Source: Candidatus Zixiibacteriota bacterium
GTDB lineage: Bacteria; Zixibacteria; MSB-5A5; JAABVY01
Reading direction: 5' to 3'
Length of the DNA: 64,000 nt
Assembly (NCBI GenBank): GCA_011056555.1
Contig: DSEQ01000025.1
Span: forward strand, 3,736-67,735
Under the pieces are notes generated by a model. The model saw only the letters and a list, made by a program, of their open reading frames with translations. It was not told the DNA's origin and did no database searches. This document shows, piece after piece, positions 13,955 through 35,306 of this stretch. Each line of letters begins with the position of its first letter. Positions within the stretch are counted from its first letter, which is position 1. The position numbers were made by a program, and so were the translations under genes.

Positions 13955-14341
13955 TCAGGAGACTTTGCCATCGACCATCGTAGGCGGCATTGCTGAACGG
14001 AAACGCAAGAGGGTCGTTTCCATATCTTCATTAATAATTTCCAGGGCTTTGTGTCCTCCATCGGCAGTCTCTTCCATAATCATATATTGCGGGTTTTGAA
14101 TTTTATGGGTGACGGTCTTCTCGGCATTTTCAGATGTGACCACCAGCAGATTCAGGTCACCCTCGTCTTCCAGGACAAAATTCTGCATGGGGGCATTGTC
14201 GGCCAGAACTGTCTTGATGTCGTTCGTATCAAAATGGGTTATATCTAAACGCCAGTTCTTGTGGCTGGTCCCGAATCCAAGCACGAATTCCGGCCACTCC
14301 TCTCTGGGAATCTCGAATTTGCGGACGTTTTCGCTGCTCAT
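13955..14341 (-). CDS. hypothetical acidic protein; its ATG overlaps the stop of the upstream PRTase as ATGA
   Basis: Long ORF with a coding-like composition, translationally coupled to the upstream gene. No family recognised. Confidence 0.4.
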   Translation of the reverse strand: MSSENVRKFEIPREEWPEFVLGFGTSHKNWRLDITHFDTNDIKTVLADNAPMQNFVLEDEGDLNLLVVTSENAEKTVTHKIQNPQYMIMEETADGGHKALEIINEDMETTLLRFRSAMPPTMVDGKVS

Positions 14342-14982
14342 ACAGGCCTCTTTTCCCGCATTAACTCGCACACCTCCTCGTCGCTGACCTGCGGAAAGTT
14401 CTCATACCACTGACCAACACTACTGAACTGTCCGGGAGTATGCATGCAGACTACCTTATCGGCCTCGCTTTCCAGTCTCCGGCAGGTCGGTTCCGCCGCC
14501 ACCGGAACAGCAGCTATCACCTTCCGGGGATCGAGTTTTCTGACGGCTTTTATGGCTGCGAGCATCGATGCTCCGGTCGCCAGGCCATCATCAACCAGCA
14601 AAACGGTTTTGCCCGACACATCGGGAGTTTCTCTGCTTCCCCGATATTTGCGCAAGCGTCTCTCCAATTCGACTTTTTCAACCTCGGCTACCTTATCTAT
14701 TACCCGGGAGGGGATATCCATGGTGCGCACGATATCTTCATTGAGGAGCGTCAGACCACCCTGGGCAATTGATCCCATGGCCAGCTCTTCCTGGCCCGGC
14801 ACGCCAAGTTTCCGGACCATAAAGACATCCAACGGAGCGTTGAGTATGCTCGCGACCTCGTAGGCGACCGGCACCCCTCCGCGCGGAAGCCCGAGCACCA
14901 CAGTATCGTCCCCTTCTATCGTTTCCTTCAGCGACTCCCCCAGTTTCAGTCCTGCTTCTGTGCGATCTTTGAAATATGTCAT
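14338..14982 (-). CDS. phosphoribosyltransferase-domain protein (type I PRT fold)
   Basis: PRPP-binding motif VLLVDDGLATGASM. The start is placed at MTYFKDRTEAG (about 215 aa), an internal ATG of the longer listed ORF. Confidence 0.75.
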   Translation of the reverse strand: MTYFKDRTEAGLKLGESLKETIEGDDTVVLGLPRGGVPVAYEVASILNAPLDVFMVRKLGVPGQEELAMGSIAQGGLTLLNEDIVRTMDIPSRVIDKVAEVEKVELERRLRKYRGSRETPDVSGKTVLLVDDGLATGASMLAAIKAVRKLDPRKVIAAVPVAAEPTCRRLESEADKVVCMHTPGQFSSVGQWYENFPQVSDEEVCELMREKRPV

Positions 14983-15004
14983 ATAATTAAGCCTTTTCCC
15001 GCTG

Positions 15005-15403
15005 TTAATCCGAGGGCATCTCACCCTTGCTGCCGGCCTCAAAGAGTTTATTGTATTCATCCGGAAGCTGCGCCTTGACATCCTCAAGCTCGCCGCCTGT
15101 TACGGCATCCCCGATGACTTCAATCACCACTCTGGCATGGTAAACTGCATCCTGCATTCTGGAGCCTTCTTTCTCGGAGACCTTATTGAAAAACTCGTCC
15201 AGGCCGAACCTCTGGCCATGATCACTGTCGCCCATCAGATACACCACCTCATCAGGCAGTTGTGCCGCTAAATTATTTGCCTCTCCTTCAGTTATTCTCT
15301 CTGACAACGTGCTTAATGTTGCCCGGGTCGCCCTTACCGCTTCCTCCAGCGAACTGAGCCTTGCCCTGCTCTGCACCTCTCTTATAAATTCATCATATTT
15401 CAT
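15005..15403 (-). CDS. DUF2267 family protein
   Basis: MKYDEFIREVQ... with two helical DUF2267 repeats. Confidence 0.6.
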   Translation of the reverse strand: MKYDEFIREVQSRARLSSLEEAVRATRATLSTLSERITEGEANNLAAQLPDEVVYLMGDSDHGQRFGLDEFFNKVSEKEGSRMQDAVYHARVVIEVIGDAVTGGELEDVKAQLPDEYNKLFEAGSKGEMPSD

Positions 15404-15445
15404 ACATATCACACCCTTCAATTAAAGATCAGATTAAATCTATGA

Positions 15446-16057
15446 TTATTCTGTTTTACCGGAAGGCTTATCCACAACCTGTACTGTGCTGGCCTGAAAT
15501 CCGGCATCGCTGAGGGCGCCGACAAACCTGACACCCATACCCGGCTCCAGATCTTCAAGCCTGTCATTGACCAGGCTGCTTTCGTTGAAATAAACCTCTC
15601 TCCCTTCAATAGTCTTCAGGAAACCGTATCCTTCATCCTTGAATATACGTTCAATGACCGCGGCCACTTCCTGATCAGGATGCACTTTCACCTCATTGCG
15701 CTGCTTTTCAACCAGTTCCTTCAGCTGTCTTTGTGCAGCGGAAAAAACATCACGGATGACAGCGTCCAGCGGCTCATGCATATCGCCGTCGCCGGGCTCA
15801 CGTTTGACCACTATTTCATGACCCGGCGGGACACGTACATTGACCCTGACCCGATAAGGATTGCCCATTCGTTGGTGTTCCTGGGGTTTCTCGAGCGCAA
15901 TCCGGCAGCTTATTATATAATCGCACACCTTTTCCAGTGATGCCACTTTATCGTTAACGAGATCTACAAGCTCGTCAGTTTTTTTTATGTCCCTTAAGGT
16001 TAATTCGAGCGGTACTTCCAAAACGCCTCCTATCTGGATTCTAAACGCTACAAGCAA
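15446..16057 (-). CDS. hpf: ribosome hibernation promoting factor (HPF/RaiA) fused to a C-terminal cold-shock (CSD/S1-like) domain; TTG start
   Basis: N-terminal ~100 aa match HPF/YfiA (PYRVRVNVRVPPGHEIVV...LDAVIRDVFSAAQRQLKE). C-terminal VIERIFKDEGYGFLKTIEGREVYFNESSL...GVRF aligns to CspA (KGFGFI...DVFVHFSAI). Confidence 0.6.
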   Translation of the reverse strand: MLVAFRIQIGGVLEVPLELTLRDIKKTDELVDLVNDKVASLEKVCDYIISCRIALEKPQEHQRMGNPYRVRVNVRVPPGHEIVVKREPGDGDMHEPLDAVIRDVFSAAQRQLKELVEKQRNEVKVHPDQEVAAVIERIFKDEGYGFLKTIEGREVYFNESSLVNDRLEDLEPGMGVRFVGALSDAGFQASTVQVVDKPSGKTE

Positions 16058-16204
16058 GACTCTCCGATTAAAGCCGCTCCTTTTTTTTCCTGTCCGCAGA
16101 CACCGTTAAATTATGCAGGAATACGCCCTTTGCACAATACTAAATAGTTGTATAGGGATTGCGTAAGTGATGTACGTAATAGCGTAAATGCGAAATCTAC
16201 TGCG

Positions 16205-16921
16205 TTACCATTCCAGATTTTCCAGAGCCAGACGGATATCCCCGGCGGTGTTGAAGTGCTGCCTGATGAGGCTGTGTTTACGTCCCATAATAAGCTTCCT
16301 GACATTGTCATCGGCGCGCTTATAGCCCTCGGCCCCCCCGATCATCTCGTAAAAGACTGTCAAGAGATCAAAAACATCCTGCTGAATGCGTTCACGGTTG
16401 GACCGGCCAAGATCAAAAAGATCTATCAAACGCACATTAAAGCCCAGCCCTTTACGTTTGACCATAATATTATCCGTATGAATATCACCATGATACTGGC
16501 CCAGAAAGTGTATCTGCTCGATACCCCGGGCCAGGGCGTACAGCAGATGCATGGCCTGAAACTGGGTGAGCTTTCTTCCCCGCTGGCGTTTAATAAAGGT
16601 GGAGAGAAGCTCCCCTTCGGCCAGATCGGAGACCAGAAATTCGACCCTCTTCCCGCTGATTTTGGCCTCTCCTCTGTGATGGTACTGGATCAATATGGGG
16701 CAGGTTCTCAATTTGTAGAGTTTTCTTGCATACTTCAACAGAGGCTTGCGGCTTATGTGGTAGGGGTAGAATATCTTGGCCGCGCGGATTATACCGGTGT
16801 GCCGTTCGCGGACTTTATAAACCTCTCCCTCCCAGCCTCCTCCCAGGAATTCCACGACATGATAATTGGATCCCAGAGTGCGTCCCTCGGGAAGATCGAA
16901 ACTGAAGTCATTGCGGCCCAT
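16205..16921 (-). CDS. small protein-kinase-like (eukaryotic-type/RIO/Kdo-kinase-like) protein
   Basis: Gly-rich loop FLGGGWEGEVYKV, Lys motif AAKIF, catalytic-loop-like HGDIHTDNIMV, DFG-like IDLFDLG. Only 238 aa with no other domains. Confidence 0.55.
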   Translation of the reverse strand: MGRNDFSFDLPEGRTLGSNYHVVEFLGGGWEGEVYKVRERHTGIIRAAKIFYPYHISRKPLLKYARKLYKLRTCPILIQYHHRGEAKISGKRVEFLVSDLAEGELLSTFIKRQRGRKLTQFQAMHLLYALARGIEQIHFLGQYHGDIHTDNIMVKRKGLGFNVRLIDLFDLGRSNRERIQQDVFDLLTVFYEMIGGAEGYKRADDNVRKLIMGRKHSLIRQHFNTAGDIRLALENLEW

Positions 16922-17464: not shown

Positions 17465-19096
17465 ATGCCCAAGATGATAGCTTATAATACTTCTGCCCGC
17501 GACAAGCTGAAAAAGGGAATCGATAAACTGGCCGATGCTGTAAAGGTTACCCTGGGGCCGCGAGGCCGCAATGTGGTAATCGACAAGAAATTCGGTTCCC
17601 CGACCATCACCAAAGATGGTGTCACTGTCGCAAAAGAGATCGAACTGGAAGACCACTTCGGGAACATGGGCGCCCAGATGGTCAAGGAAGTCGCTTCCAA
17701 GACCTCTGATATCGCCGGTGACGGTACCACAACAGCGACTATAATAGCTCAGGCGATTTACCGCGAAGGTTTGAAAAATGTCACTGCCGGTGCAAATCCG
17801 ATGAGTGTCAAGCGCGGGATTGACAGGGCGGTTGATGCCATTGTGAAAGAACTCAGGGAACTTTCCCGCCCGGTGCCCGGAAAAAACGAGATATCCCAGG
17901 TCGGCACAATTTCGGCCAACAACGACAAGCTGATCGGCGATCTGATCGCGGAAGCTATGGAGAAAGTCGGCAAGGACGGAGTGATCACGGTTGAGGAAGC
18001 CAAAGGTACCGAGACCGAGCTGACAGTAGTCGAAGGTATGCAGTTTGACCGCGGTTACCTCTCTCCCTACTTCATCACTAATCCGGATAATATGGAAGCT
18101 GTCCTGGAAGATCCGATGATTCTTATCCATGACAAAAAGATCTCGAATATGAAAGATCTGCTTCCGATCCTGGAGAAGGTTGCCCAGATGGGCAAGCCGA
18201 TGCTTATCATTGCCGAGGATGTTGAGGGCGAGGCGTTGGCTACACTGGTGGTCAACAAGCTGCGCGGCACGATCAAGGTTGCCGCTGTGAAGGCTCCGGG
18301 TTTCGGTGATCGCAGAAAAGCCATGCTGGAAGACATCTCAGTCCTGACAGGCGGTAAGGTGATTTCCGAGGAACTCGGATTCAAACTCGAGAACACAGTG
18401 GTTTCAGATCTGGGCACGGCCAAGAAAGTCAATATCGACAAGGACAACACGACCATAGTCGAAGGCGGCGGAAGCACCGAGGAAATCAAGGCCCGTATCG
18501 GCCAGATCAAGAAGCAAATCGAGGATACAACCTCCGATTATGACCGCGAGAAACTGCAGGAACGTCTGGCCAAGCTGGCCGGAGGCGTGGCGGTTATCAA
18601 TGTCGGCGCGGCCACCGAGACTGAGATGAAAGAGAAGAAAGCGCGTGTCGAGGACGCCCTTCATGCCACCCGTGCAGCGGTTGAGGAGGGCATAGTGCCC
18701 GGAGGAGGTGTGGCCTACCTGCGTGCTCTGAATGCTCTGGAAAAGGTTAATCTCGATGAAGAGGAGAAAGTGGGTGTAATGATTGTCCGTAAAGCTCTGG
18801 AGGAACCGATCAGGCAGATCGCGTTCAACTCCGGCATTGACGGTTCAATTGTTCTCAATAAAGTGGCAGAGCAGAACGGCGCCTTCGGCTATAATGCGCT
18901 GACCGACACCTATGAGGATCTTCTGAAGGCGGGTGTAATAGACCCCACCAAGGTTGCCCGGACAGCGCTCGAAAATGCCGCTTCTATTGCAGGGCTGCTG
19001 TTGACCACAGAAGCTCTGGTTACCGAGAAGCCCGAAAAGAAAAAGGAAATGCCCGGCGCAGGCATGCCCCCGGGAGGGATGGATGAATGGGATTGA
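17465..19096 (+). CDS. groEL: chaperonin GroEL
   Basis: Canonical Cpn60 sequence through to the C-terminal GGM-type tail. Confidence 0.98.
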
Positions 19097-19131
19097 TTCC
19101 GCGTATGACACTATAATCAGGTAACTACTCG

Positions 19132-19160
19132 AGCCCGGCTTTTTATGCCGGGCTTTTATT
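19132..19160 (+). terminator. rho-independent terminator of groESL
   Basis: agcccggc-tttttat-gccgggct followed by TTTTATT. Confidence 0.75.
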
Positions 19161-19256
19161 CTGCCGGATTCCATCGCTGAGAAAAATCTTGTTCTATTAA
19201 GTTGTTTTGAGTACAGTAGAGTACAGGCCCAGTATCAGTAAATCGGGGAGGCTCTA

Positions 19257-20363
19257 ATGAGTAATCCGAAAATGATTGTAAATTCATCAAATCTGCGAAC
19301 AATTTGTATCCTGACCATATCGATTTCAATAATTCTTTCAGCTGCTGCCTTATGCCAGCAGACCGGCGGGGAGAAACTGATTATAGGCACCAAACCGACC
19401 GCTCCATTCGCCATGAAAGCCGAGGATGGTTCATGGTATGGCATCAGTATCGAGCTCTGGCGCACGATTGCCTCGGATCTGGAGCTTGAATATGTGTTCG
19501 AGGAGCGTGATTTGCAGGGATTGCTGGAGGGACTCGAGGACGGCTCCCTCGATCTGGTGGTCTCGGCCCTCACCATAAATTCCGAGCGCGAGGAAAAATT
19601 CGATTTCTCTCATCCCTTCTACAGCGCCGGTCTGACGATAGCATCATCTGCATCGGGAGGGGCCAGCTTTCTCAATGTCGCCCAGGGGCTTCTTTCCTCC
19701 CAGTTCATCCGGGTGGTAGCCATACTGGTCTTCATACTGCTTGTCACCGGTTTTTTGGTGTGGGCCTTTGAACGAAAACGCAACGCTGAACAATTCGGCG
19801 GAGGAATCGGAAAAGGTATCGGTTCCGGATTCTGGTGGTCAGCAGTTACCATGACCACCGTAGGTTATGGAGACAAGGCGCCCAAAACTTTCGGCGGGCG
19901 GATTGTGGCCCTGATCTGGATGTTTGCCGCTATCATTATCATATCCAGTCTTACGGCAGCTATTGCCTCGGCCCTGACGGTCTCTAAACTCGAGGCCAGG
20001 ATAAGCGGACCGGAGGATTTGCCCCGGGTGGAGGTGGGTACGATTGCCAGTTCCACCAGCGAGAAATATCTTCAGAATAATAAGATTAACTTCAGCACTT
20101 ATGATAGTCCCGGAGACGGCCTTAAAGCAGTGGCCCAGGGGGAGATAGATGCCTTCGTTTATGACGCGCCAATTCTCAGATATTTGATTAACAATAACTT
20201 CAAGGGTAAGCTGAAAACCCTGCCATCGACTTTCTTGCACCAGGATTACGGCATCGCTCTTTCAAACGGGAGGCCACTACGAGAAGCGATAAATATTGTC
20301 CTCTTGCGCGAAATCGCCCGACCGGAATGGGAAAGCCTTCTCGATAGATATATGGGAAAATGA
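19257..20363 (+). CDS. GluR0-like prokaryotic ionotropic glutamate-receptor homolog: a ligand-gated K+ channel with a split periplasmic solute-binding (SBP_bac_3) domain
   Basis: Signal peptide; S1 lobe; M1; pore helix with K+ selectivity filter TTVGYGD; M2; S2 lobe. Architecture S1-M1-P-M2-S2 as in Synechocystis GluR0. RBS GGGGAGG. Confidence 0.7.
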   Translation: MSNPKMIVNSSNLRTICILTISISIILSAAALCQQTGGEKLIIGTKPTAPFAMKAEDGSWYGISIELWRTIASDLELEYVFEERDLQGLLEGLEDGSLDLVVSALTINSEREEKFDFSHPFYSAGLTIASSASGGASFLNVAQGLLSSQFIRVVAILVFILLVTGFLVWAFERKRNAEQFGGGIGKGIGSGFWWSAVTMTTVGYGDKAPKTFGGRIVALIWMFAAIIIISSLTAAIASALTVSKLEARISGPEDLPRVEVGTIASSTSEKYLQNNKINFSTYDSPGDGLKAVAQGEIDAFVYDAPILRYLINNNFKGKLKTLPSTFLHQDYGIALSNGRPLREAINIVLLREIARPEWESLLDRYMGK

Positions 20364-20466
20364 ATGTGCGGAATTCTGTATCGGGATTATCAATAATCAT
20401 AAGCGTCTTCCTTTCAACAAGTTAAAAAATTCCGACAAAAAGTGTAGAACTTTTTAATCCAGTTGT

Positions 20467-20482
20467 TGTTGAATATTCTACA
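20467..20482. promoter_or_regulatory. 16-bp near-perfect palindrome TGTtGAATATTCtACA upstream of the sensor-kinase/NtrC operon
   Basis: 33-48 nt upstream of the HK start. The same core recurs at 32833-32848. Confidence 0.45.
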
Positions 20483-20514
20483 TAATTGTTGATCCATATA
20501 CTAAAGATTAACCC

Positions 20515-21570
20515 ATGTTTAAAACCAATAAATTATACCTGGTACTTCTGATCGTCATCACGGCAGCGACACTTACGCTGCATTATTATGGCCTTCTGTT
20601 CGAAGGTGTCCTGGGACATTCGCATCTGATCCATGTCATCCATGCGCGTCTGTGCTACATACCGATTGTTCTTGGCGCGGTTTGGTTCGGACTGCGCGGG
20701 GGCATTACTACCGCTGTTGTTATTTCGATTTTCGCGGTTCTGTACATCCAGCTCAAGCCGGTAATCATTGCTGAAGATCTGATAAATGAATACACTGAGA
20801 TCGCATTTTATCTGGCGATCGGCGGCATGGCCGGAATTTTGGTCGACAGGGATCGTTCATTTGTGCGCAAGAAGGAAGAGGCTGAGAGAAAGCTCCAGCA
20901 GGCACAAAGGCTCTCCATGATGGGCCAGATGACCGCTTCCATTGCGCATGAGATCAAGAATCCGCTTGGGTCGATCAAGGGCGCCTCGCAGATTTTGAAG
21001 GATGATTCGCTTTCGGACGAAGAGAAGCATGAGTTTGCGGAAATGATAGAAAAGGAAGCCGACAGGCTCGATTTTGTGGTCAAGGATTTTCTGTCCTATG
21101 CCCGCCCATCCCCATCCAGGTTTTCTGAAATAGACCTGCGCGAAATTCTGAATTCGGCCTATAAACAGCTTAAATATCAGGCTCGTGACAGTAATATCGA
21201 AATAAATATGGATTTTGACGAGGTCCCCTCGATCAAGGCCGACCCCGACAAGCTGCGCCAGGTATTTCTCAACATATTGCTCAACTCATTTCAGGCTATG
21301 CCTGATGGAGGAAAAATCGAGATAAAGTGCCTTCACGATAACGGTGATGCCGTGATAATCATCAGAGATAATGGTATCGGTATCCCCGTGCAGGATCTGG
21401 ACAAAATATACGATCCGTTCTACACTACCAAGAGCCGCGGTTCAGGCCTGGGACTGGCAACTACAAAAGCAATTATCGAAGAGCACAACGGCGCCATCAA
21501 AGCCGACAGCGCCAGGGGTGAGGGCACAACATTCAAAATATCGCTGCCAATTGAAGGTGCGGAGCATTAA
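20515..21570 (+). CDS. sensor histidine kinase (membrane N-terminus with a His-rich segment, HisKA + HATPase_c)
   Basis: 3-4 N-terminal TM helices; H-box SIAHEIKNPLGSI; N/G1/G2 boxes. Its stop TAA overlaps the RR start (TAATATG). Confidence 0.85.
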   Translation: MFKTNKLYLVLLIVITAATLTLHYYGLLFEGVLGHSHLIHVIHARLCYIPIVLGAVWFGLRGGITTAVVISIFAVLYIQLKPVIIAEDLINEYTEIAFYLAIGGMAGILVDRDRSFVRKKEEAERKLQQAQRLSMMGQMTASIAHEIKNPLGSIKGASQILKDDSLSDEEKHEFAEMIEKEADRLDFVVKDFLSYARPSPSRFSEIDLREILNSAYKQLKYQARDSNIEINMDFDEVPSIKADPDKLRQVFLNILLNSFQAMPDGGKIEIKCLHDNGDAVIIIRDNGIGIPVQDLDKIYDPFYTTKSRGSGLGLATTKAIIEEHNGAIKADSARGEGTTFKISLPIEGAEH

Positions 21571-21571
21571 T

Positions 21572-22924
21572 ATGAATAATGAGAGAATACTGGTTGTGGA
21601 TGATGATGCCTCGCTCAGGAGGATTATCGAGTTCCACCTGAAAAAAAAAGGCTACAAACTAACTGCCCTGGAAACTGCGGAAGAGGCCGTTAAGCATCTC
21701 AAAAAATCCAACTTCGAGCTTCTGATATCCGACATCAAAATGTCGGGTATGGACGGCCTGGATTTACTGCAGATAGCGCAGGAAATAAAGCCCGATCTGC
21801 CCGTGATTTTCATCACAGCCTTCGGGACTATTGAGATGGCGGTGGAGGCCATGAAGCTGGGAGCCTATGACTATATCACCAAGCCCTTTGATCTGGATGA
21901 TTTCATGCATACGGTGGAAAAAGCTCTGGACTATCACAGGCTTCTGGATGAAAACCTCAGGCTCAAGAAAGAGCTCAAGAACAGGGATTCATTTTCCAAT
22001 ATTATTGCCGCCTCAAAGCCGATGGAGGAAATTTTTAACAGCGTCAGGAAGGTGGCCAACACCGACACAACAGTGCTCATAACGGGTGAGTCGGGCACCG
22101 GTAAGGAGCTGATCGCCAGGGCCATACACCGGGAGAGCGAACGTTCCGACAATCCCATGATAACGGTCAATTGCGCCGCAATTCCCCGGGACCTTTTGGA
22201 GAGCGAACTGTTCGGCCATGTCGCCGGAGCATTTACCGGTGCGGTCAAGAACAAGACCGGTAAGTTTCAATTGGCTGACGGGGGAACGATCTTCCTGGAT
22301 GAGATCGGCGACCTTAGCATGGAACTGCAGGCCAAGCTCTTGCGAGTACTGGAAAATAGAGTGGTTGAACCGGTTGGATCGAATGAGTCCACGCCGGTAG
22401 ACATAAGGGTACTGGCGGCAACCAATCAAGACCTTAATAAAAAACTGAAAGCGGGTGAATTCAGGGAAGATCTGTTTTACCGTCTCAATGTCATTCCGAT
22501 CAATATTCCTCCCCTGCGCGAGCGCCGGGAAGATATTCCCCTCCTGGTGAAACACTTTCTCAACGAATACTCCGACAGTAAGAGACTATCCATTGATCCG
22601 AAAGCTCTCAAGGAATTAAGCGAGTATGACTGGCCCGGTAATGTGCGTGAATTAAAAAACCTGTTGAAGAGAATCGCTGTGCTGGCTGAGAACAGCAAGA
22701 TCATGCCTTCCGATCTTCCGCCTGAGATAAAATCAGAAGGCAGCCGGAAAACCGGCGAAGACAGAGCCGGTAACAATTCCCTGCAGGAAACTGAAAAAAA
22801 TGCGATAGTAGATGCTTTAAGGAAGACGGGATGGAACCAGACGCGGGCTGCCAAACGCCTGCAGATACCCCGACATATATTGATCTACCGCATGAAGAAG
22901 TACGGCATCAGAGAAGAAGAATAG
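21572..22924 (+). CDS. sigma54-dependent response regulator, NtrC/ZraR/AtoC family (REC + AAA+ sigma54-activator + Fis-type HTH)
   Basis: REC with phospho-acceptor Asp; Walker A GESGTGKE; GAFTGA motif (GHVAGAFTGA); C-terminal HTH (QTRAAKRLQIPRHILIYRMKK). Confidence 0.9.
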   Translation: MNNERILVVDDDASLRRIIEFHLKKKGYKLTALETAEEAVKHLKKSNFELLISDIKMSGMDGLDLLQIAQEIKPDLPVIFITAFGTIEMAVEAMKLGAYDYITKPFDLDDFMHTVEKALDYHRLLDENLRLKKELKNRDSFSNIIAASKPMEEIFNSVRKVANTDTTVLITGESGTGKELIARAIHRESERSDNPMITVNCAAIPRDLLESELFGHVAGAFTGAVKNKTGKFQLADGGTIFLDEIGDLSMELQAKLLRVLENRVVEPVGSNESTPVDIRVLAATNQDLNKKLKAGEFREDLFYRLNVIPINIPPLRERREDIPLLVKHFLNEYSDSKRLSIDPKALKELSEYDWPGNVRELKNLLKRIAVLAENSKIMPSDLPPEIKSEGSRKTGEDRAGNNSLQETEKNAIVDALRKTGWNQTRAAKRLQIPRHILIYRMKKYGIREEE

Positions 22925-22945
22925 AAAACCTGAGCCGATCTACGG

Positions 22946-23485
22946 TTACTTCAGATGAATCATTTTCCCGATAGTGTAGTAATTGTCGGCGGCAAAAATG
23001 TAGAAGTAGACGCCGCTGGAGAGAGATGCGCCGTCCTCGTTGCGACCGTTCCAAGTAACCTCGTAATCGCCCGGAAAATCAATCTCATCTTTAATGATTC
23101 TAACCTTCTGGCCAAAAATATTATAGACCGCAATATAGACGTAGGCCTCTACCGGAAGGCTGTATTTGATCACGGTGCTTGAATTGAAGGGATTGGGATA
23201 ATTTTGCGGCAGAAGAATTTGGAAGTCCTCGTTTTCTTTTGCCGCTTTCTCGGCCAGTTTTTCTGCCAGTTCCTCGGGGCTGACTTGTTCAAATTCGCCG
23301 TTACCGGAGTTTCGCGAATAGACCTGGAACGGTTTTTCAGCATCAGTTGAAATCTCAACTCTCTCGGCCTGCTCCTCGGCCTCTTCTATTTTCTCCGCCG
23401 GGCGATCGGGGTCCTCCCTGGAGAAGACATTATTGGAGATGCCCATAAAAATTAGAGTTAAAACTAAATGCACCATTACTTTCAT
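22946..23485 (-). CDS. small secreted acidic protein with a T9SS C-terminal sorting domain
   Basis: Signal peptide; C-terminal PQNYPNPFNSSTVIKYSLP...VYNIFGQKV...GVYFY CTD. Confidence 0.6.
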   Translation of the reverse strand: MKVMVHLVLTLIFMGISNNVFSREDPDRPAEKIEEAEEQAERVEISTDAEKPFQVYSRNSGNGEFEQVSPEELAEKLAEKAAKENEDFQILLPQNYPNPFNSSTVIKYSLPVEAYVYIAVYNIFGQKVRIIKDEIDFPGDYEVTWNGRNEDGASLSSGVYFYIFAADNYYTIGKMIHLK

Positions 23486-23602: not shown

Positions 23603-24154
23603 CTACCATGAATCAGGGCTCAATGCTGGACGGCTTTCGGTATGAAAATGATAATAATGATAACCTTCATCCTCATGACCCATATGCATGCCCCTGCCGT
23701 CATGGCCCATGATACCATTCTCATTGAACATGATCATGTAATCGGTTCCATAATGCAGAGCGGAATCGGGCATGAATTCGCAGCTATCGAGATTTTCGTT
23801 CCAGTTAAACCTTCCGCCCCATTCAATTGAATCAATCCAGACCATCATATGGTTTCTGCGGATCATATTCATATGTCCCATTCCACCGTAGTGATCAAGT
23901 GAATCCATCCACTCATGCATCGGTTCTCCGCCGGAAAAATAGCTGTACAAGCGCACAGACTGTGTATCCATTGGCATATTGAATGCCATATGCAGTGATG
24001 TTTCGGTTGATACTGAGGACGCTCCGTCAGCCGGGATTATGCGCAGCAGTTCCGGATCCAGATTCGAGCTTTCCCCCGGTGAATCGTCGTTGCATGAGAT
24101 TAAGAGCAAAAATAAAATGGCCAGACCCCCCATAATAAGCGTTGCGTTTTTCAT
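23603..24154 (-). CDS. His/Met-rich lipoprotein, CopC-like putative periplasmic copper-binding protein
   Basis: Lipobox LISC; an Ig-like CopC-type N-terminal segment (LRIIPADGASSVSTETSLHMAFNMPMD); Met/His clusters (MGHMNM, MHMGHEDEGYHYYHFH). Sits in the copper island. Confidence 0.45.
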   Translation of the reverse strand: MKNATLIMGGLAILFLLLISCNDDSPGESSNLDPELLRIIPADGASSVSTETSLHMAFNMPMDTQSVRLYSYFSGGEPMHEWMDSLDHYGGMGHMNMIRRNHMMVWIDSIEWGGRFNWNENLDSCEFMPDSALHYGTDYMIMFNENGIMGHDGRGMHMGHEDEGYHYYHFHTESRPALSPDSW

Positions 24155-24203
24155 AAGTCTCTCCTGTGCTTATTCTTAGCTCGAGAACACCCGTGATCGA
24201 GCT

Positions 24204-24422
24204 TCAGCTTATTAGATCTTTTTTCTTCTCGTCATATTCTTCTTTGGAGATCTCGCCGGAAGCATAGCGTCGTTTCAGAACCTCCATTGCTGACGGTTCC
24301 TGTGATCGAGAAGAAGTTCTGTCGACCGTAAATTTTATCAGGAACACTATACCGATAACCACCAGGACCCAAAATATTATCATCCAGAGACCTCCGTAAG
24401 CCATATGATCATATCCGAACAT
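24204..24422 (-). CDS. SHOCT-domain small membrane protein
   Basis: One TM helix followed by the C-terminal SHOCT motif EVLKRRYASGEISKEEYDEKKKDL. Confidence 0.6.
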   Translation of the reverse strand: MFGYDHMAYGGLWMIIFWVLVVIGIVFLIKFTVDRTSSRSQEPSAMEVLKRRYASGEISKEEYDEKKKDLIS

Positions 24423-24505
24423 GCTGCACCGCCCTTGATTCTAAGCGGGCAGGCTCGAAAGTCGAATGTCGGCCTGCCCGGACATACATTTCGTTATGCT
24501 TCAAC

Positions 24506-24928
24506 TTAGTTAGAATCCTCCTTTTTGTTTTCGCCAGATTCCATCTGCATCTTTTTCTGCTCGGACATCTGGCCACCCATCATCTGCATCATTTTCTGTC
24601 CCATTTGGCTATGATCAGCCATCATCTGATGCATATTCTGCATCATATCCCGATGCTGGACCATCTCGTCCCTGAGTTCTGTGCAGTCTTCCATATCCAT
24701 CATGGTATTGAAGTGCTGCTCCATTTTTTCGAAATTAGTCATCATGGTTTCAGACTGATGGACCATGTTTTTCATCATGTTTTGCTGGCTCATCATCATG
24801 GAATCATCGGACATCATCATATGCTGTCCCTTATCGTCGCCGCGCATCTCCTGCTGGGCGGTTGCAAATGCGAACAGCATCAAGAGCGCCACCCCCAGAA
24901 ATATGCCAAAAGTAAACTGCCGTTTCAT
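24506..24928 (-). CDS. secreted methionine-rich protein (about 22% Met), putative periplasmic Cu(I)/Ag(I)-binding protein
   Basis: Signal peptide, then Q/D/M-rich repeats (HMMMSDDSMMMSQQNMMKNM...). Strong RBS AAAGGAGG. Adjacent to cusA. Confidence 0.6.
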   Translation of the reverse strand: MKRQFTFGIFLGVALLMLFAFATAQQEMRGDDKGQHMMMSDDSMMMSQQNMMKNMVHQSETMMTNFEKMEQHFNTMMDMEDCTELRDEMVQHRDMMQNMHQMMADHSQMGQKMMQMMGGQMSEQKKMQMESGENKKEDSN

Positions 24929-25043
24929 CGTATCCTCCTTTTTTGGATTGGTTCAAAGCTTTGTGCTGCAAGCTTTGATATAAACTGTTTTCTGCTCGTT
25001 AGGTAAAACAAAAGAAACCGCTCCCTCGTTCCGCCTAAATAAT

Positions 25044-28000
25044 TCAGGAGGATTTGTCAGCTTTCAATGTTTTTCTCATTTTTTGTTCTGCGATAGCGCT
25101 GTACAATACCGGTACCACAAACACTGTTATCAGGACTACAGTCATTCCGCCGAATGACGGTATCGCCATCGGAACCATAATATCCGAGCCTTTGCCGGTT
25201 GAAGTCAGGACAGGTATCAGCGCAAGGATAGTAGTACCCGCGGTCATCAATGCCGGACGGATTCTGCGCCTGGCCGCCTCCACAGTGGCCTCACGGATTT
25301 CCCCGACCGTCACAGGCTTTCTTCTGTCAAAAACCTGCCGCAGATAGGTTGCAACTATAACGCCGTTATCGGTGGCGATTCCGAACAGAGCCAGAAACCC
25401 CACCCATACCGCAACCGAAAGGTTGTATTGCCGAACCTGGAAGAGCTCGCGGAAATCGACTCCGAAGAGCGAGAAGTTCAGGAACCATCCCTGGCCGTAA
25501 AACCAGAGCATCAAAAACCCGCCGGCCCAGGCCACAAAAATACCCGAGAAAACCAGAAGCGTGGTGGGCACATTCTTAAACTGAAAATAGAGTATTAAAA
25601 AGATGATCAGCAGGGATAATGGAAGTACAACAATAAGTTTCTTTTCAGCCCTGACCTGATTCTCATAACTGCCGGCAAAGCTGTAGCTTACCCCGGCAGG
25701 AATATCGAAATCGCCTTTATTGATTTTTGATTTCAGATAATTATCGGCCGCCTGTACCACCTCGACCTCGGCATAATTCGGCTTCTTATCGAATATCACA
25801 TATCCGACGAGAAATGTATCCTCAGACTTTATGACCATCGGGCCCCTGCGAAATTCTATCTCGGCTAATTCCTTCAATGGTATCTGGGTACCGTCAGCCG
25901 CCGGAACAAGAATATCGCCCAGACTTTCCAGTGTATTTCTCAGCTCCCGAGGATAGCGCACTCGTACCGGATAACGCTCGCGGCCTTCCACTGTGGTGGT
26001 CAGACGTTTTCCTCCGACTGCAACCTCTATGATGTCCTGTATCTTTCTTATATGTATGCCATAGCGGGCAATCTTATGCCGGTCGATATCTATTTCCAGA
26101 TAAGGCTTGCCGACAATTCTATCGGCGATGACCGAAGCCGGTTCCACCTGCGGCACCTCTTTCAGATATTTTTCGATTTGATAACCGACCTGCTCGATCG
26201 TCTCCAGGTCGGGACCTTTGACTTTGACTCCCATCGGAGCGCGCATGCCCGACTGCAGCATCACTATGCGCGTGGCAATAGGCTGGAGTTTCGGGGCCGA
26301 GGTTGTACCCGGTAATTTGCCCGCCTTGATAATTTCATCCCAGATGTCATCGGGACTGTTAATATGATCGCGCCACTGACGATACGGTCTGCCGTCATCG
26401 TCGGGTATAAGCTCGCCCTTTTCATCCCGCACAAATTCATCCTTTTCGCGATCATATTTGAATTTCAAGACCTTACCGTCCTTGTTGGTCCTGTATTCCG
26501 ACTTATAATTTATGATCGTTTCAATCATGGAAATCGGGGCCGGATCAAGGGGCGAATCGACCCGTCCGATCTTTCCAACCACATTCTCAACTTCAGGGAT
26601 GGCATTAAAAGCCTTGTCCTGCAACTGGAGTACCTCCAGTGCCTCGCCTATCGAGGCATGCGGCATGGTGGTGGGCATGTACAGAAACGATCCCTCGTCC
26701 AGATCGGGCATGAATTCTTTGCCCAGTCCCGGGAATGTATGGTTAAGCGATGTATATACCTGCGTGGATCTCACAAAATCAGGCATGAAACCGAAGATTT
26801 TATTGAATCCGAGCCAGATTGAAATCCCCAAAAAGACCAGAAGTGTCGGGACCGCAAGAAAGAGCAGCTTATGTTCGAGACACCATCTCAGCACCGGTTC
26901 ATAAATTCTCATCAATCCTATAAAGAGCAACAAGATTCCGCCAATTAAGATAATAACGAATATTAAATTCAGCAGGAATCCATTGCCAATGCCCAGAGGC
27001 ATCCAGTGATGGGCCAGAAATACTCCCACTACCAGCACTATCAAGTAATTGACATAGCGCGGGATTAATGACTGCACTTCCTGCGGGATATATTTTTTGA
27101 ATTGCAGATAGGCCGCAATCAAAACAAGCGCGATTCCGGCCAGCCACAATGACCAGAAGACCGCAATAAACGCTCCCGCCAGGAATATCCCGATCGGCAG
27201 TATGCTTTTAAACCTGGATAATTTTGCCTTGCGGGTGAATAGTAAATCTGCGAAGGGAGGTATAATTGTCAGGGCCACTATGACCGAAGCTACCAGTGCA
27301 AATGTCTTTGTATATGCCAGCGGCTTGAACAGCTTGCCCTCAGCGGCAACCATCGTGAACACCGGAAGAAACGAAATTACAGTGGTTAAGATAGCGGTCA
27401 GTACTGCGCCCCCGACTTCGGATGAGGCAGCGAATATAACATCCCGTTTATTTGCGTCAGGCGGGGCCTTCTCGAGGTGCCTGAGTATGTTCTCACAAAT
27501 AATCACCCCCATATCTACAATTGTACCGATGGCAATTGCAATACCCGAGAGCGCAACAATATTGGCATCCACTCCAAAAAGTTTCATACCGATGAACACC
27601 ATCAGGACTGTGATTGGCAGCAGCCCGGAGATCAGCAGGGAACTTCGTATGTGCATCAATATTACGATCACCACAATGATGGTTACAAGGATTTCATCCA
27701 CCAGGGCAGTATTCAATGTCCCCAATGTCTCATAGATGAGGCCGGTACGGTCGTAGAACGGCACTATTGTAACCTGGGTCTCGGTACCGTCAGAAAGGAC
27801 TTTCCTGGGAAGCCCGGGAGCGATCTCCTCGATTTTTTCTTTCACATGATTTATTGTCGCCAGCGGATTTTCTCCGTAACGAACAACCACTACACCGCCC
27901 ACAGCCTCTGCCCCGCCCTTATCCAGCGCGCCGCGCCTCATTGCCGGACCCAGAGACACAGTGGCAACATCCTGAATCCGGATGGGGACGTTTTCACGTT

Positions 28001-28823
28001 CGAGGATCACGGAACTTCGGATATCATCCAGACTTTCGATAAAACCAAGTCCGCGGATGACATATTCAACCCGATTTATCTCGATCGTCTTAGCCCCCAC
28101 GTCGACATTGGACATCCTGACCGCATTGAAGACATCGGTGAGTTTAATGTTGTGGGCCTTCAAAGCGCTGGGATCGACATCTATCTGATATTCCTGCACA
28201 TAACCGCCTATCGAGGCCACCTCGGAGACACCATCAGCCGACTGCAGGGCGTAACGAACGATGTAATCCTGGATCGATCTCAATTCATGCAGATCCCATC
28301 CACCTGTTGGATTACCGTCTTTGTCGCGGCCCTCGAGGGTGTACCAGAAGACCTGTCCTAATGCAGTCGCATCCGGCCCAAGCGAGGGCTGCACTCCTTC
28401 CGGCAGTGTACCGGTCGGGAGGGAATTCAGTTTCTCCAGCACACGCGAGCGTGACCAGTAGAACTCGACATCCTCCTTGAAGATCACATAGATGGTCGAA
28501 AATCCGAGATAGGAATAACTGCGGATTGTCTTGACACCAGGTATGCCCAGCAGCGAGACCGTCAATGGATATGTAATCTGGTCCTCAACATCCTGGGGTG
28601 AACGTCCCATCCACTCGGTAAAGACAATCTGCTGATTCTCGCCAATATCCGGAATAGCATCGACCGGAACAGGTTCACGCGGCAGATTGCCCAGATCCCA
28701 GTCAAAGGGAGCGACCATAATACCCCAGCCGATCACCATTATTGTCAGCACGGATACGACCAGCTTGTTGTCCAGGCAGTAGCGTATTATTTTATCGAGA
28801 ATAGAATGATTTCTGTTATTCAA
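25044..28823 (-). CDS. cusA: heavy-metal efflux RND permease, CusA/CzcA family (1259 aa, with an extra ~150-aa periplasmic insertion)
   Basis: 12-TM RND topology with HME-family conserved regions (N-terminal MLNKIIRYCL..-like). Length exceeds the ~1040-aa typical CusA because of an insertion around KSEYRTNKDGKVL... Confidence 0.9.
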   Translation of the reverse strand: MNNRNHSILDKIIRYCLDNKLVVSVLTIMVIGWGIMVAPFDWDLGNLPREPVPVDAIPDIGENQQIVFTEWMGRSPQDVEDQITYPLTVSLLGIPGVKTIRSYSYLGFSTIYVIFKEDVEFYWSRSRVLEKLNSLPTGTLPEGVQPSLGPDATALGQVFWYTLEGRDKDGNPTGGWDLHELRSIQDYIVRYALQSADGVSEVASIGGYVQEYQIDVDPSALKAHNIKLTDVFNAVRMSNVDVGAKTIEINRVEYVIRGLGFIESLDDIRSSVILERENVPIRIQDVATVSLGPAMRRGALDKGGAEAVGGVVVVRYGENPLATINHVKEKIEEIAPGLPRKVLSDGTETQVTIVPFYDRTGLIYETLGTLNTALVDEILVTIIVVIVILMHIRSSLLISGLLPITVLMVFIGMKLFGVDANIVALSGIAIAIGTIVDMGVIICENILRHLEKAPPDANKRDVIFAASSEVGGAVLTAILTTVISFLPVFTMVAAEGKLFKPLAYTKTFALVASVIVALTIIPPFADLLFTRKAKLSRFKSILPIGIFLAGAFIAVFWSLWLAGIALVLIAAYLQFKKYIPQEVQSLIPRYVNYLIVLVVGVFLAHHWMPLGIGNGFLLNLIFVIILIGGILLLFIGLMRIYEPVLRWCLEHKLLFLAVPTLLVFLGISIWLGFNKIFGFMPDFVRSTQVYTSLNHTFPGLGKEFMPDLDEGSFLYMPTTMPHASIGEALEVLQLQDKAFNAIPEVENVVGKIGRVDSPLDPAPISMIETIINYKSEYRTNKDGKVLKFKYDREKDEFVRDEKGELIPDDDGRPYRQWRDHINSPDDIWDEIIKAGKLPGTTSAPKLQPIATRIVMLQSGMRAPMGVKVKGPDLETIEQVGYQIEKYLKEVPQVEPASVIADRIVGKPYLEIDIDRHKIARYGIHIRKIQDIIEVAVGGKRLTTTVEGRERYPVRVRYPRELRNTLESLGDILVPAADGTQIPLKELAEIEFRRGPMVIKSEDTFLVGYVIFDKKPNYAEVEVVQAADNYLKSKINKGDFDIPAGVSYSFAGSYENQVRAEKKLIVVLPLSLLIIFLILYFQFKNVPTTLLVFSGIFVAWAGGFLMLWFYGQGWFLNFSLFGVDFRELFQVRQYNLSVAVWVGFLALFGIATDNGVIVATYLRQVFDRRKPVTVGEIREATVEAARRRIRPALMTAGTTILALIPVLTSTGKGSDIMVPMAIPSFGGMTVVLITVFVVPVLYSAIAEQKMRKTLKADKSS

Positions 28824-28833
28824 ATCAGCCCTC

Positions 28834-30777
28834 TTAATTAGTCTTTTCCATATTCGGTGACAGTTTTTCCTTGATCTCTCCGCAACGCAGCATCATAGCG
28901 CCGTAAAACGAATTATAGACGGTATCTACAGTCTGGAGCCAGTAGGCCCCCTGGTTATCACGCGCCATCGGACAGAAAGTCAGGAAATAATCCTGGTCCG
29001 AGGCGTGTCCGAATGTTTCCTGCATTTCAATAATAACATTAGAAAGACCATAAAATGCATCGCGTGATTCTTCGATATTCTCGGCCTCGATGCCGGCCTC
29101 TGCATCCGCGATCATCTGCCCGGAATACTTTATCCATTTCATATGCGCATGATCCTTGAACAGGCCCATATCAACATTTTTGACCGACTTTTTTAATCCG
29201 CTGTAAGCTTCTGTAGCCTTGTCCAGCTCATCCGAGGCAAGCGCCATCTGCACATCAAAATAATGCGCATATACCGGGGTCAGGGCCTGCAATGTTTCAG
29301 GATCAAGCGTCACAGCTTCGGGTTCTTTCTGCCCGGAGGAGGGCCGCGATATGGGAGATTGCTGGCCATGCTGATGGGCCGGGCTGCCCCCTCCGCCTTC
29401 CACAAACATCATACTGGGCCGGGCCTGAATCTGAAGCTCGCTGTCGATCTTGAAGGCACCATTGGTAACAACCATTTCACCTTCAGAGAGGCCGGACTTG
29501 ACAACATATAAGTCTCCCGCACGCGGACCCAGTTCAACCTCTCGCCCTTCAAAGACAGGCTTGTCTCCGTCGCTCAGTTCGATATACACAACCGCGCGCT
29601 TTCCTGTCAGAAGAGGAGCGGAAGCCGGTATTACAAGCGGCGCCTCGGATTCCGAATCAGCCAACCGGTCATTGATCACATTTCCTTCCCTGTCCAGAAC
29701 CGACATAATAGTACCGCTTACAAACATGTCTGGCTTGAGCAGACCCTTCGGGTTATCCACTTCGGTCCGTACTCTGGCTGTACGGCTTTGAGGATTGATC
29801 ACAGGATCGATAAAGGTTATTTCAGCGTTGAATTCCTTTCCCGGGAAGGATGGGGATGTGAACACAACATTCTGGCCGACCTTAAGCCAGGGCAGATCGG
29901 TTTCATAGGCGTCGAAAAGCACCCAGATACTGGAAAGGTCGGCTATGGTATAGATTTGAGTGCCGGTCTTCACATACATTCCTTCTTTGGCGTTCTTTTC
30001 GACCACCACTCCGCTGACAGGAGATTTCAGCTTGACCTGCTCCAGCACAACTTCTGATTCTTCAATATCCTTTATTTGGCCTTCAGTCAGACCATAAAGC
30101 CGCAGCTTCTCACGAGCGGATTGAAGCGTCAGGCTGGCGGTCGACTTCAAAACAGAGCTGCCGTTGTTGAGCCTCTCGACCGACTGTTTGGCCTGCAGAA
30201 GTTCTTCCTGAGCGCTTATCAGTTCGGGTGAATAGATGTGTACCATATGTTCACCTTTCTGGACTGTCTCGCCTGTGAAATCAACGAACATTTTATCGAG
30301 CCTTCCGGGAACCCAGGCGGTGATATAGGAAACCTCAGCTTCATCATACGCAATCCTGCCGTTCATCCTGATCTCGGACTCAGCGAAGGCGCGTCTTACC
30401 GGAGTGGTTTGAATGAGAGCCAGTTTCTTGGCAGTTTCGGACATCTTTAACTGGCGCGGTCCCAGATCACCGCTGTTGTCCGATTCAAGCGGGATCAAGT
30501 CCATGAAGCAAATCGGACATTTTCCCGGCTCAGAGAGCTTTATCTGGGGATGCATGGAGCAGGTCCAGGTCGTCGGCTCGGATGAAGCGGCCTGCGCCTC
30601 GGCCTGGCTGTGCTCATGATTGGCGGCAGTGTTTGCCGATTCACCCCCCCGGCCTCCCGAGACTATCATGCCGAAGGAGAACACCACAACTAAAATCGCA
30701 ATGAATACAATCAGTCCCTTTCCCTTGCGCGGTATAAATCCCAGCAGGCTGTCATTATTATTTCTATGTTCAGTCAT
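28834..30777 (-). CDS. cusB: efflux RND periplasmic adaptor (CusB-like) with an N-terminal heavy-metal-binding Cys motif and a C-terminal DUF3347-like extension
   Basis: CSMHPQIKLSEPGKCPICFMDL (HMBD), then beta-barrel/lipoyl/MP domains, then a helical C-terminal extension (YAHYFDVQMALASDELD...). Confidence 0.8.
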   Translation of the reverse strand: MTEHRNNNDSLLGFIPRKGKGLIVFIAILVVVFSFGMIVSGGRGGESANTAANHEHSQAEAQAASSEPTTWTCSMHPQIKLSEPGKCPICFMDLIPLESDNSGDLGPRQLKMSETAKKLALIQTTPVRRAFAESEIRMNGRIAYDEAEVSYITAWVPGRLDKMFVDFTGETVQKGEHMVHIYSPELISAQEELLQAKQSVERLNNGSSVLKSTASLTLQSAREKLRLYGLTEGQIKDIEESEVVLEQVKLKSPVSGVVVEKNAKEGMYVKTGTQIYTIADLSSIWVLFDAYETDLPWLKVGQNVVFTSPSFPGKEFNAEITFIDPVINPQSRTARVRTEVDNPKGLLKPDMFVSGTIMSVLDREGNVINDRLADSESEAPLVIPASAPLLTGKRAVVYIELSDGDKPVFEGREVELGPRAGDLYVVKSGLSEGEMVVTNGAFKIDSELQIQARPSMMFVEGGGGSPAHQHGQQSPISRPSSGQKEPEAVTLDPETLQALTPVYAHYFDVQMALASDELDKATEAYSGLKKSVKNVDMGLFKDHAHMKWIKYSGQMIADAEAGIEAENIEESRDAFYGLSNVIIEMQETFGHASDQDYFLTFCPMARDNQGAYWLQTVDTVYNSFYGAMMLRCGEIKEKLSPNMEKTN

Positions 30778-30807
30778 GTCATTTCTCCTTTCAGCACCAG
30801 GTTCCTG

Positions 30808-31344
30808 TTACATCTCGTGCTGATGCCCATCCGTTTCCATTTTCATTTCAGGCTCTTCTGCTTGCTCATCTGTGGATGACTTTTCATCGAGTTTCATCAG
30901 ATACTTCTGAGGGTCTTCTTCAAATGACGCGACACATCCGGCACAGCAGAAATAAACCCTGCGTCCTTCGTAATCAGCATAAACTTCCTTTTTTTCCAGC
31001 TCCTTACCGGAAACCGGGCAGGTTGTCTGAATATTCTCGAACAGTACGCCTTCGGCGGCTGCCTTCTTAAAATATTTATCCGGATCGGCAACAAGCGCAC
31101 CGGAACATCCCGGACAGCAATGATACACCCTCTGGCCCTGGATATCGGTGTAGACTTCCTTATCTATCTTGCCGCCCATAACCGGGCAAATGGTTTGCGC
31201 TTTCATTTCCACAGCATCAGCTTTCTCCGCACTTTCGGACTTTGCGGTTTTTTCTGCCTTCTCATGCCCCTCGCCTGCCAAGGCCAGTCCGAATGTGAAA
31301 ATGGAAAGTGCAAATACGATTGAGAAAAATTGAAGCTTTTTCAT
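30808..31344 (-). CDS. secreted tandem YHS/TRASH-domain metal-binding protein
   Basis: Signal peptide. Two repeats of TCPV-G-x(n)-Y...CC-GC (TCPVMGGKI...YHCCPGCSG; TCPVSGKEL...YFCCAGCVA). Confidence 0.65.
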   Translation of the reverse strand: MKKLQFFSIVFALSIFTFGLALAGEGHEKAEKTAKSESAEKADAVEMKAQTICPVMGGKIDKEVYTDIQGQRVYHCCPGCSGALVADPDKYFKKAAAEGVLFENIQTTCPVSGKELEKKEVYADYEGRRVYFCCAGCVASFEEDPQKYLMKLDEKSSTDEQAEEPEMKMETDGHQHEM

Positions 31345-31364
31345 CAGCAGCTCCTTTCAAAAAG

Positions 31365-32753: not shown

Positions 32754-32768
32754 TCAAATTGCATGCCA
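32754..32768 (-). promoter_or_regulatory. weak sigma54-like -24/-12 element (TGGCATG-N4-TTGA) immediately upstream of cusC
   Basis: Correct GG-N10-G spacing, but the -12 GC is GA. It ends only about 8 nt before the annotated ATG. Confidence 0.25.
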
Positions 32769-32848: not shown

Positions 32849-32890
32849 TTTTTGCAGACTATTCTCCAGAAGATTGGAGGTATCTGGAAA

Positions 32891-35301: not shown

Positions 35302-35306
35302 TTATC

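Follow-up and report, generated by a model that had tools for sequence, protein, structure and literature searches.

Within the 64-kb window (the whole stretch of DNA analysed here, from a Zixibacteria MAG), the plus strand carries at 19257..20363 a gene for a GluR0-type ligand-gated K+ channel. The reading frame opens with an ATG and encodes 368 amino acids, with the stop codon included in the coordinates, so the ORF named in the original prediction is real and its limits are exact. A ribosome-binding site, GGGGAGG, can be read directly on the sequence 5 nt upstream of the ATG (19245..19251, plus strand), and beyond it a strong terminator-like hairpin with a 9-pair stem, 7 G-C pairs and a T-run (19131..19155, plus strand) lies 3' of groEL and sets the channel gene apart from the groES-groEL unit. 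Downstream of the channel come a histidine kinase gene (20515-21570) and then an NtrC-type sigma-54 activator gene (21572-22924), a pair that had been predicted and is indeed present; channel, kinase and regulator all lie on one strand, and the spacer between channel and kinase measures 151 bp (20364-20514). Scans for sigma-70 promoters and terminators across 19000-23100 gave counts at chance level, the post-groEL terminator being the sole convincing element. Because the terminator scan of this interval found no terminator-like hairpin in the channel-kinase spacer, transcription through the channel stop into the kinase operon is possible. Two antisense ORFs on the minus strand inside the channel gene (19235-19576 and 19839-20240) are taken as by-products of the coding frame. 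No second copy of the channel was found within the 64-kb window, and Rfam and tRNA scans of its whole length returned no match.

The analysis establishes the architecture, filter, binding residues and fold of the channel protein, whose parts follow one another along the plus strand. A hydrophobic N-terminal helix (residues 1-33; 19257..19355), seen as a hydropathy peak centred on residues 20-27 and as a helix at 10-34 in the structural model, would serve as a signal sequence or as an anchor and so place S1 in the periplasm. The S1 half of the clamshell (residues ~38-135; 19368..19661), recognised by its match to Lig_chan-Glu_bd (residues 41-129; 3.4e-10), by its alignment to residues 4-93 of the PDB entry 2pyy and by conservation, contains W60, A104, T106 and R111. 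The M1 transmembrane helix (residues 148-172; 19698..19772) is supported by the model and by hydropathy, and the pore helix (residues 184-199; 19806..19853) by the model and by the Ion_trans_2 match. The K+ selectivity filter TTVGYGD (residues 200-206; 19854..19874), evident from the sequence and from conservation in relatives, is part of TMTTVGYGD at residues 198-206, in which the K+ channel signature T-x-V-G-Y-G-D is present. The M2 inner helix (residues 212-245; 19890..19991), placed by the model and by alignment to GluN1, includes SSLTAAIASAL, and the S2 half of the clamshell (residues 249-368; 20001..20360), aligned to residues 104-221 of 2pyy and recognised by conservation, holds S266-T267-S268 and Y302-D303. 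Since hydropathy reveals no more than three hydrophobic segments and S2 is the last part of the chain, the 368-residue protein has neither a third membrane helix (M4) after S2 nor an amino-terminal domain, S1 beginning near residue 38. Positive charges are gathered in the two loops that border the P-loop (ERKRN and DKAPKTFGGR), which together with the N-terminal helix would fit a periplasmic binding domain and an inverted pore.

Profile searches and structure prediction converge on the same picture. SBP_bac_3 matches at 1.3e-22 in a split alignment across residues 41-368 that is interrupted by the channel module; Lig_chan matches at 7.5e-18 over residues 156-259, which correspond to no more than positions 7-113 of the 146-position profile; and Ion_trans_2 matches at 3.8e-12 over residues 159-241. 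These three and the Lig_chan-Glu_bd match all exceed the curated Pfam cut-offs, with scores far beyond chance. The AlphaFold single-chain model, built with 60 homologs as input (mean pLDDT 88, pTM 0.70), sets the M1, pore and M2 helices between two alpha/beta lobes, with lower confidence in the linkers and pore (pLDDT 63-89). Compared by Foldseek, the model aligns with AMPA-receptor LBD-TMD chains over 365-383 columns at E~1e-22, with TM scores of 0.5-0.66. The predicted arrangement of two binding half-domains around an M1-P-M2 pore bearing TTVGYGD is thus upheld by Pfam, by PDB sequence matches and by the model alike, as is the GluR0 architecture, with its S1-M1-P-M2-S2 order, K+ filter and lack of both ATD and M4. 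Two of the checks suggested at the outset came out in its favour: the HMM search recovered Lig_chan and SBP_bac_3 above their cut-offs, and the structure prediction found helices at the expected M1, pore and M2 places in a fold like the AMPA-receptor LBD-TMD. The observation that would have counted against it, a solute-binding protein on an unrelated anchor with no pore match, was not seen; Lig_chan and Ion_trans_2 are both matched and the filter is present.

The ligand site carries the hallmarks of the wider receptor family. The stretch A104-L-T106-I-N-S-E-R111-E-E-K-F-D-F-S-H-P-F has the spacing of the conserved iGluR S1 motif, and Y302-D303 aligns to the W-D of GluN1. The S1 Arg, which contacts the alpha-carboxyl group, and the S2 Asp, which contacts the alpha-amino group, are the conserved contacts defined by Ger et al. 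(PMC2950845). Across 60 relatives A104, T106, R111 and D303 are invariant, together with T201, V202, G203, Y204, G205 and D206 of the filter; of 150 diverse representatives, any two of which are more than 50% different, 146 retain GYG, 143 retain R111 and 137 retain D303, while a further seven have Glu at position 303. Towards the side-chain end of the pocket the family varies, with Y, H or F at position 302, T, S or A at 267 and S, A or G at 268. When the isolated S1S2 core is compared with the PDB, the best matches are GlnPQ binding domains (3.1e-36), followed by 2pyy (1.8e-32) and then glutamine-binding proteins, to which its likeness is about as strong as to 2pyy, and because these are its closest counterparts the ligand is likely to be a polar alpha-amino acid, such as glutamate or glutamine. 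In M2, SSLTAAIASAL aligns with the eukaryotic SYTANLAAFL with five of ten positions identical. The aligned M2 motif has the form S-x-(F/L)-T-A-x-I-A-S-x-L, and the pattern across the channel family is S-x-F-T-A-x-I-(A/T)-S-x-L.

The kinase and its regulator, meanwhile, keep company of another kind. The kinase ortholog at locus L081 (70% identity) still has the regulator, T9SS and Big_5 genes alongside it, yet no channel lies upstream, and even at this channel-less locus a 17-nt block around the kinase-proximal operator is invariant. At each of L082-L086 (53-58% identity) the ortholog and an OEP - CusB-like (HMBD) - RND operon form a divergent pair; five of the six sampled orthologs therefore adjoin a cusCBA-like efflux operon, and none of the six adjoins a channel. 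The intergenic regions of L082-L086 have in common a palindrome, TGTAGAATATTCTACA, near the kinase start and a TGGCAT-N5-TTGC sigma-54 promoter facing the efflux genes. In the window, the operator TGTTGAATATTCTACA (20467..20482, plus strand), 33 nt before the kinase start, belongs to the kinase-regulator operon and is no part of the channel, and this conserved element assigns the 3' part of the spacer between channel and kinase to the control region of the kinase itself. The window also has an efflux operon of its own on the minus strand, comprising genes for an OEP (31365-32747), a YHS protein (30808-31344), CusB/HMBD (28834-30777), an RND pump (25044-28823) and Met- and His-rich small proteins (24506-24928 and 23603-24154). 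Upstream of it lie a copy of the palindrome (32833-32848), a weaker copy (32853-32868) and the promoter TGGCATGCAATTTGA (32754-32768). With up to 3 mismatches allowed, the palindrome occurs at 3 sites in the whole window against 0.22 expected, only before the kinase gene and the efflux operon; with up to 2, it occurs exactly once in each of 8 kinase-ortholog loci and in none of 78 other loci. A scan for TGGCAC-N5-TTGC gave 41 matches against 55 expected and placed no sigma-54 promoter in the spacers upstream of the channel or between channel and kinase. In the four-helix membrane region of the kinase, H23, H43 and C47 are invariant across 117 orthologs and constitute a metal-ligand set. A weak match to DUF4118 (KdpD-type) in the same region, considered as a link to K+ sensing, was rejected because it falls below the cut-off and because the genomic context speaks for metal efflux. 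Given the pairing with efflux operons, the shared operator, the sigma-54 promoter and the invariant H23, H43 and C47, the kinase and sigma-54 regulator are predicted to control a Cus-like metal-efflux operon. As a by-product, the analysis brings to light, for Zixibacteria and related lineages, a sigma-54 regulon for metal efflux that is compact and has a defined operator.

We hold with considerable confidence that the gene at 19257..20363 encodes a GluR0-type amino-acid-gated K+ channel, most likely transcribed as its own unit and without a functional tie to the kinase and sigma-54 regulator. Its N-terminal hydrophobic segment would direct the export of S1 and S2, which would form a periplasmic amino-acid-binding clamshell, and between them M1, the pore helix, the TTVGYGD filter and M2 would build an inverted K+-channel pore. 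By analogy with the characterised GluR0, four subunits would make up one channel. An alpha-amino acid, probably a polar one, would be held by T106, R111, S266/T267 and D303; by the same analogy, its binding would close the clamshell and pull on the S1-M1 and M2-S2 linkers, and this pull may open the M2 bundle and let K+ flow down its electrochemical gradient. What such a channel does for the cell we infer from characterised relatives.

The original prediction went further and took the position of the channel, directly upstream of the HK/NtrC pair, as a hint of coupled sensing, with channel, kinase and sigma-54 regulator forming one sensory module in which ligand binding or K+ flux feeds the two-component system. 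Several points speak for this: the three genes share a strand, the 151-bp channel-kinase spacer has no predicted terminator, the kinase has no periplasmic sensor domain of its own, the channel-kinase-regulator order is kept in the two closest genomes, and a sigma-54 activator also stands beside the channel at two distant loci (L034 and L049). Yet the kinase/regulator pair is kept in only 2 of the 80 best channel loci, both from close relatives (L001, where the channel is 85% identical, and L002, where it is 79% identical), and the adjacency is missing from 76 of the 78 more distant ones. At L001 collinearity with the window extends over the entire block, groESL through to the T9SS and Big_5 genes, and the synteny of channel and kinase is therefore shallow. 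The activators at L034 and L049 are unrelated to the one in the window, and L015 and L063 have only an unrelated kinase beside the channel; these unrelated regulators and kinases are judged compatible with chance, in the case of the activators because such regulators are common. On the kinase side, the pattern among orthologs also argues against coupling, since no channel adjoins any of the six sampled, L081 keeps the regulator, T9SS and Big_5 genes with an intact operator block but no channel, the other five are paired with efflux operons under a common palindrome and sigma-54 promoter, the window's palindrome ties the kinase gene to its own efflux operon, and the kinase membrane region bears an invariant metal-ligand set. 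The proposed coupling consequently fails, and we regard a single sensory module as very improbable; what had been a tempting inference is removed as false, the kinase and regulator belonging to a metal-efflux regulon. On the sequence evidence, the channel gene is most likely transcribed independently and happens to neighbour a two-component system.

Two further readings leave the locus as it stands and concern the protein itself. Under one, the channel is of the GluR0 type but is gated by a ligand other than glutamate, whether glutamine, serine, glycine or another small amine-carboxylate, which would make 'glutamate receptor' a misnomer. Several amino acids reportedly act on Synechocystis GluR0, the glutamine/asparagine-binding GlnPQ domains give the highest score with the S1S2 core and glutamine-binding proteins a strong one, and the side-chain end of the pocket (positions 302, 267 and 268) is variable in the family. 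Against this, the next-best match of the core is the glutamate-bound Nostoc GluR0 core, and S268 aligns with a hydroxyl residue that touches the distal carboxylate in glutamate-binding receptors, an equivalence that we assume from the GluN1 alignment and textbook GluA2/GluN2A numbering. A non-glutamate ligand is accordingly a tentative alternative, somewhat less probable than its opposite but one to be taken seriously. Far harder to sustain is the view that the protein is a membrane-anchored solute-binding protein serving an ABC transporter, its pore-like insert being a degenerate anchor. Names do point that way, since the sources list ABC-type amino acid transport substrate-binding proteins and the public annotation reads 'transporter substrate-binding domain-containing protein', and the SBP_bac_3 match is strong. 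The insert, however, matches Lig_chan and Ion_trans_2 above their cut-offs and bears a filter that is invariant throughout the family and needless in a mere anchor; the binding-protein fold is interrupted where an ABC substrate-binding protein would have it whole; no ABC permease or ATPase was found among the genes scanned, about 14.3-37.6 kb of the window; and such annotations were already flagged as errors by Ger et al. 2010 (PMC2950845). We therefore give this view almost no credence and return to the GluR0-type amino-acid-gated K+ channel as the identity of the protein. Public databases still mislabel these channels as transporter substrate-binding proteins, and the practical value of the result lies in a corrected annotation.

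If the two-component system is not the partner of these channels, their genomic neighbours suggest where to look instead. Clustering of the neighbours at the 80 best channel loci revealed no recurrent signalling partner or two-component system. MscS family genes lie within 6 kb of the channel in 17 of the 80, 11 of them within 500 bp and 10 of those 11 co-oriented with it; CorA genes recur at 9 of the loci, CNNM/CorC genes at 5 and pentapeptide-repeat K+ channels at 3. Neighbours of this kind, recurrently concerned with ion homeostasis, agree with the osmotic and K+ role of Synechocystis GluR0 (PMC13099474). That effluxed glutamate might activate GluR0 has been raised as speculation in the same study, which reports no genomic link. 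We propose, as an outside chance, that GluR0-type and MscS-family channels form a circuit in which glutamate, released with K+ to the periplasm through MscS-type channels during osmotic transitions, gates GluR0, which in turn resets K+ content and membrane potential. Since no MscS gene lies in the 64-kb window, the argument for such a circuit here comes entirely from family membership. The pairing is nevertheless the most useful lead to emerge, for it bears on what glutamate receptors do for bacteria, a matter still poorly understood.

The family from which these loci were drawn is extensive. A word-indexed search yielded at least 4,921 clusters (90% identity) at E<=1e-5 among 8,000 scored candidates, and nearly all of the best 120 of those clusters share the same Pfam set and a length of ~360 aa. 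An exhaustive search of representatives returned 1,352 clusters (50% identity) at E<=1e-30; in the top 150 of these every match is one single stretch, and most span nearly the whole query. Confirmed loci place a channel relative in at least 512 species genomes from more than 15 phyla, with Zixibacteria, Ignavibacteria, Desulfobacterota, Planctomycetota, Verrucomicrobiota, Acidobacteriota, Bacteroidota, Calditrichia, Myxococcota, Proteobacteria, Omnitrophota and Trueperaceae among the groups represented. With so many clusters, genomes and phyla, the statement that this architecture is rare in bacteria is wrong, and the family is far larger than literature counts of about 12 to 100 sequences. 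For the channel itself little changes: it is an ordinary, new and uncharacterised member, an addition from Zixibacteria to a family known since 1999.

Set against the known systems, the channel has over its entire chain the same fold as the LBD-TMD layer of eukaryotic AMPA/NMDA receptors, and NMDA GluN1 chains align with it without a break from S1 through the pore to S2. It stands outside the eukaryotic iGluR class (AMPA/kainate/NMDA/delta), having no amino-terminal domain, M4 or C-terminal tail and no strict SYTANLAAF gate, and carrying a true K+ filter, TVGYGD, where the eukaryotic receptors have a Q/R/N-site pore loop. With two-TM K+ channels such as KcsA it has in common the M1-pore helix-TVGYGD-M2 module picked up by Ion_trans_2, but unlike that of KcsA its pore interrupts a periplasmic binding protein, and the predicted orientation of the pore in the membrane is inverted.

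Other relations are found among prokaryotic receptors. The ligand-binding core of Nostoc punctiforme GluR0 (2pyy) is the best full-length PDB sequence match (3.3e-28), aligning as two blocks to channel residues 40-129 and 249-366; both lobes align end to end and the T...R and D positions are identical, although identity over the S1S2 core, counted by hand on the alignment, is only ~34%, and 2pyy is a soluble construct whose entry is silent on the Nostoc pore. The functional prototype is GluR0 of Synechocystis PCC 6803 (slr1257, UniProt P73797), which shows glutamate-evoked K+ currents with an EC50 of about 30 uM (bioRxiv 10.1101/2021.01.27.428399), and for which K+ uptake, outward-facing termini, a role in cell volume and, by experiment, the inverted orientation of the pore have been described (PMC13099474). 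Its architecture is alike in the order S1, M1-P-M2 bearing a GYG K+ filter, and S2; its signal sequence has a putative counterpart in the N-terminal helix of the channel, and both proteins do without ATD and M4 and possess the S1 Arg and S2 Asp (PMC2950845). It is a distant relation all the same, for when the S1S2 core is compared with PDB sequences, the 60 best matches include the Nostoc core and glutamine-binding proteins but no chain labelled as the core of Synechocystis GluR0, and its host is a cyanobacterium whereas the channel comes from a Zixibacteria MAG. Partial NCBI proteins with 100% identity to the channel and to the kinase bear the Zixibacteria label. The channel fits the definition of Group 1, the 'putative glutamate-sensitive potassium channels' of Ger et al. 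2010 (PMC2950845), in which glutamate-binding halves enclose a pair of TM helices and a P-loop bearing a K+ channel filter. It shares with that group the conserved Arg and Asp and the routine mis-annotation as a solute-binding protein, and whereas that survey counted 12 sequences, the present searches show a family more than 100-fold that size, with members in many uncultured phyla.

A Cus-like metal-efflux operon appears to be the target of the histidine kinase and sigma-54 regulator encoded at 20515-22924. The palindromic operator TGT(A/T)GAATATTC(T/C)ACA is found 5' of both the kinase gene (20467-20482) and the efflux operon (32833-32848, with a weaker copy at 32853-32868), and at the operon it is followed by a sigma-54 promoter of the form TGGCAT-N5-TTG(C/A) (32754-32768). 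Comparison of the intergenic regions of L081-L086, loci carrying kinase orthologues, revealed the same operator and promoter arrangement in five orthologous loci. The sensor part of the kinase (residues 1-115; window 20515-20860) is a membrane domain of four helices lacking a periplasmic loop, and matches Pfam DUF4118 weakly. Across 117 orthologues, H23, Y25, H43, R45, C47, Y48, P50, W57, E92 and E95 are all invariant, a pattern of conservation that suggests a metal-binding site within the membrane.

The metal-efflux gene cluster spans 23603-32747 on the minus strand, where genes for an OEP (31365-32747), a YHS-domain protein (30808-31344) and a CusB-like protein with HMBD and DUF3347 domains (28834-30777) precede that of a 1259-aa RND pump (25044-28823); after the pump come a very Met-rich protein of 140 aa (24506-24928), for which Pfam gives no match, and then a Big_5 protein rich in His and Met (23603-24154). 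Directly past the operon, also on the minus strand, lie hydrogenase-maturation genes (32891-37616) encoding an AIR-synthase-like HypE-type protein (32891-33943), HypD (33944-35053) and HypF (35307-37616). Convergent with the regulator gene is a minus-strand gene (22946-23485) whose small product bears a T9SS C-terminal sorting domain; another such domain, at 50% identity, is located close to the window start (360-623), and these copies fit an FCB-group host.

Upstream of groESL is a minus-strand group (14338-16921) that includes a short gene of protein-kinase type (16205-16921) and one in which a Ribosomal_S30AE/sigma-54-modulation protein is joined to a cold-shock-like domain (15446-16057); its other members encode a DUF2267 protein and a phosphoribosyltransferase. 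The order of protein-kinase-like gene, groES, groEL and channel is seen again on the contig of P0002.

Other ion-transport genes recur beside GluR0-type channel genes in the 80 best related loci. In 11 of them (L004, L011, L014, L016, L019, L026, L031, L036, L041, L061 and L071) a gene for a mechanosensitive channel of the MscS family is found within 500 bp of the GluR0-type gene, mostly on the same strand; CorA is nearby in nine and CNNM/CorC in five. Some genomes also hold another GluR0-type gene, divergent at 32-36% identity, that adjoins the first or lies near it, as at L050 (3149-4120), L058 (2966-3931) and L079 (7104-8075); such pairing suggests tandem paralogues or possible heteromers.

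Within the inner pore helix (M2) of the channel, residues 230-240 read SSLTAAIASAL (window 19944-19976), and the family pattern is S-x-F-T-A-x-I-(A/T)-S-x-L. This pattern aligns with SYTANLAAFL, the gate motif of eukaryotic receptors, and in the channel family the SYTANLAAFL-like helix occurs together with a true K+ filter.
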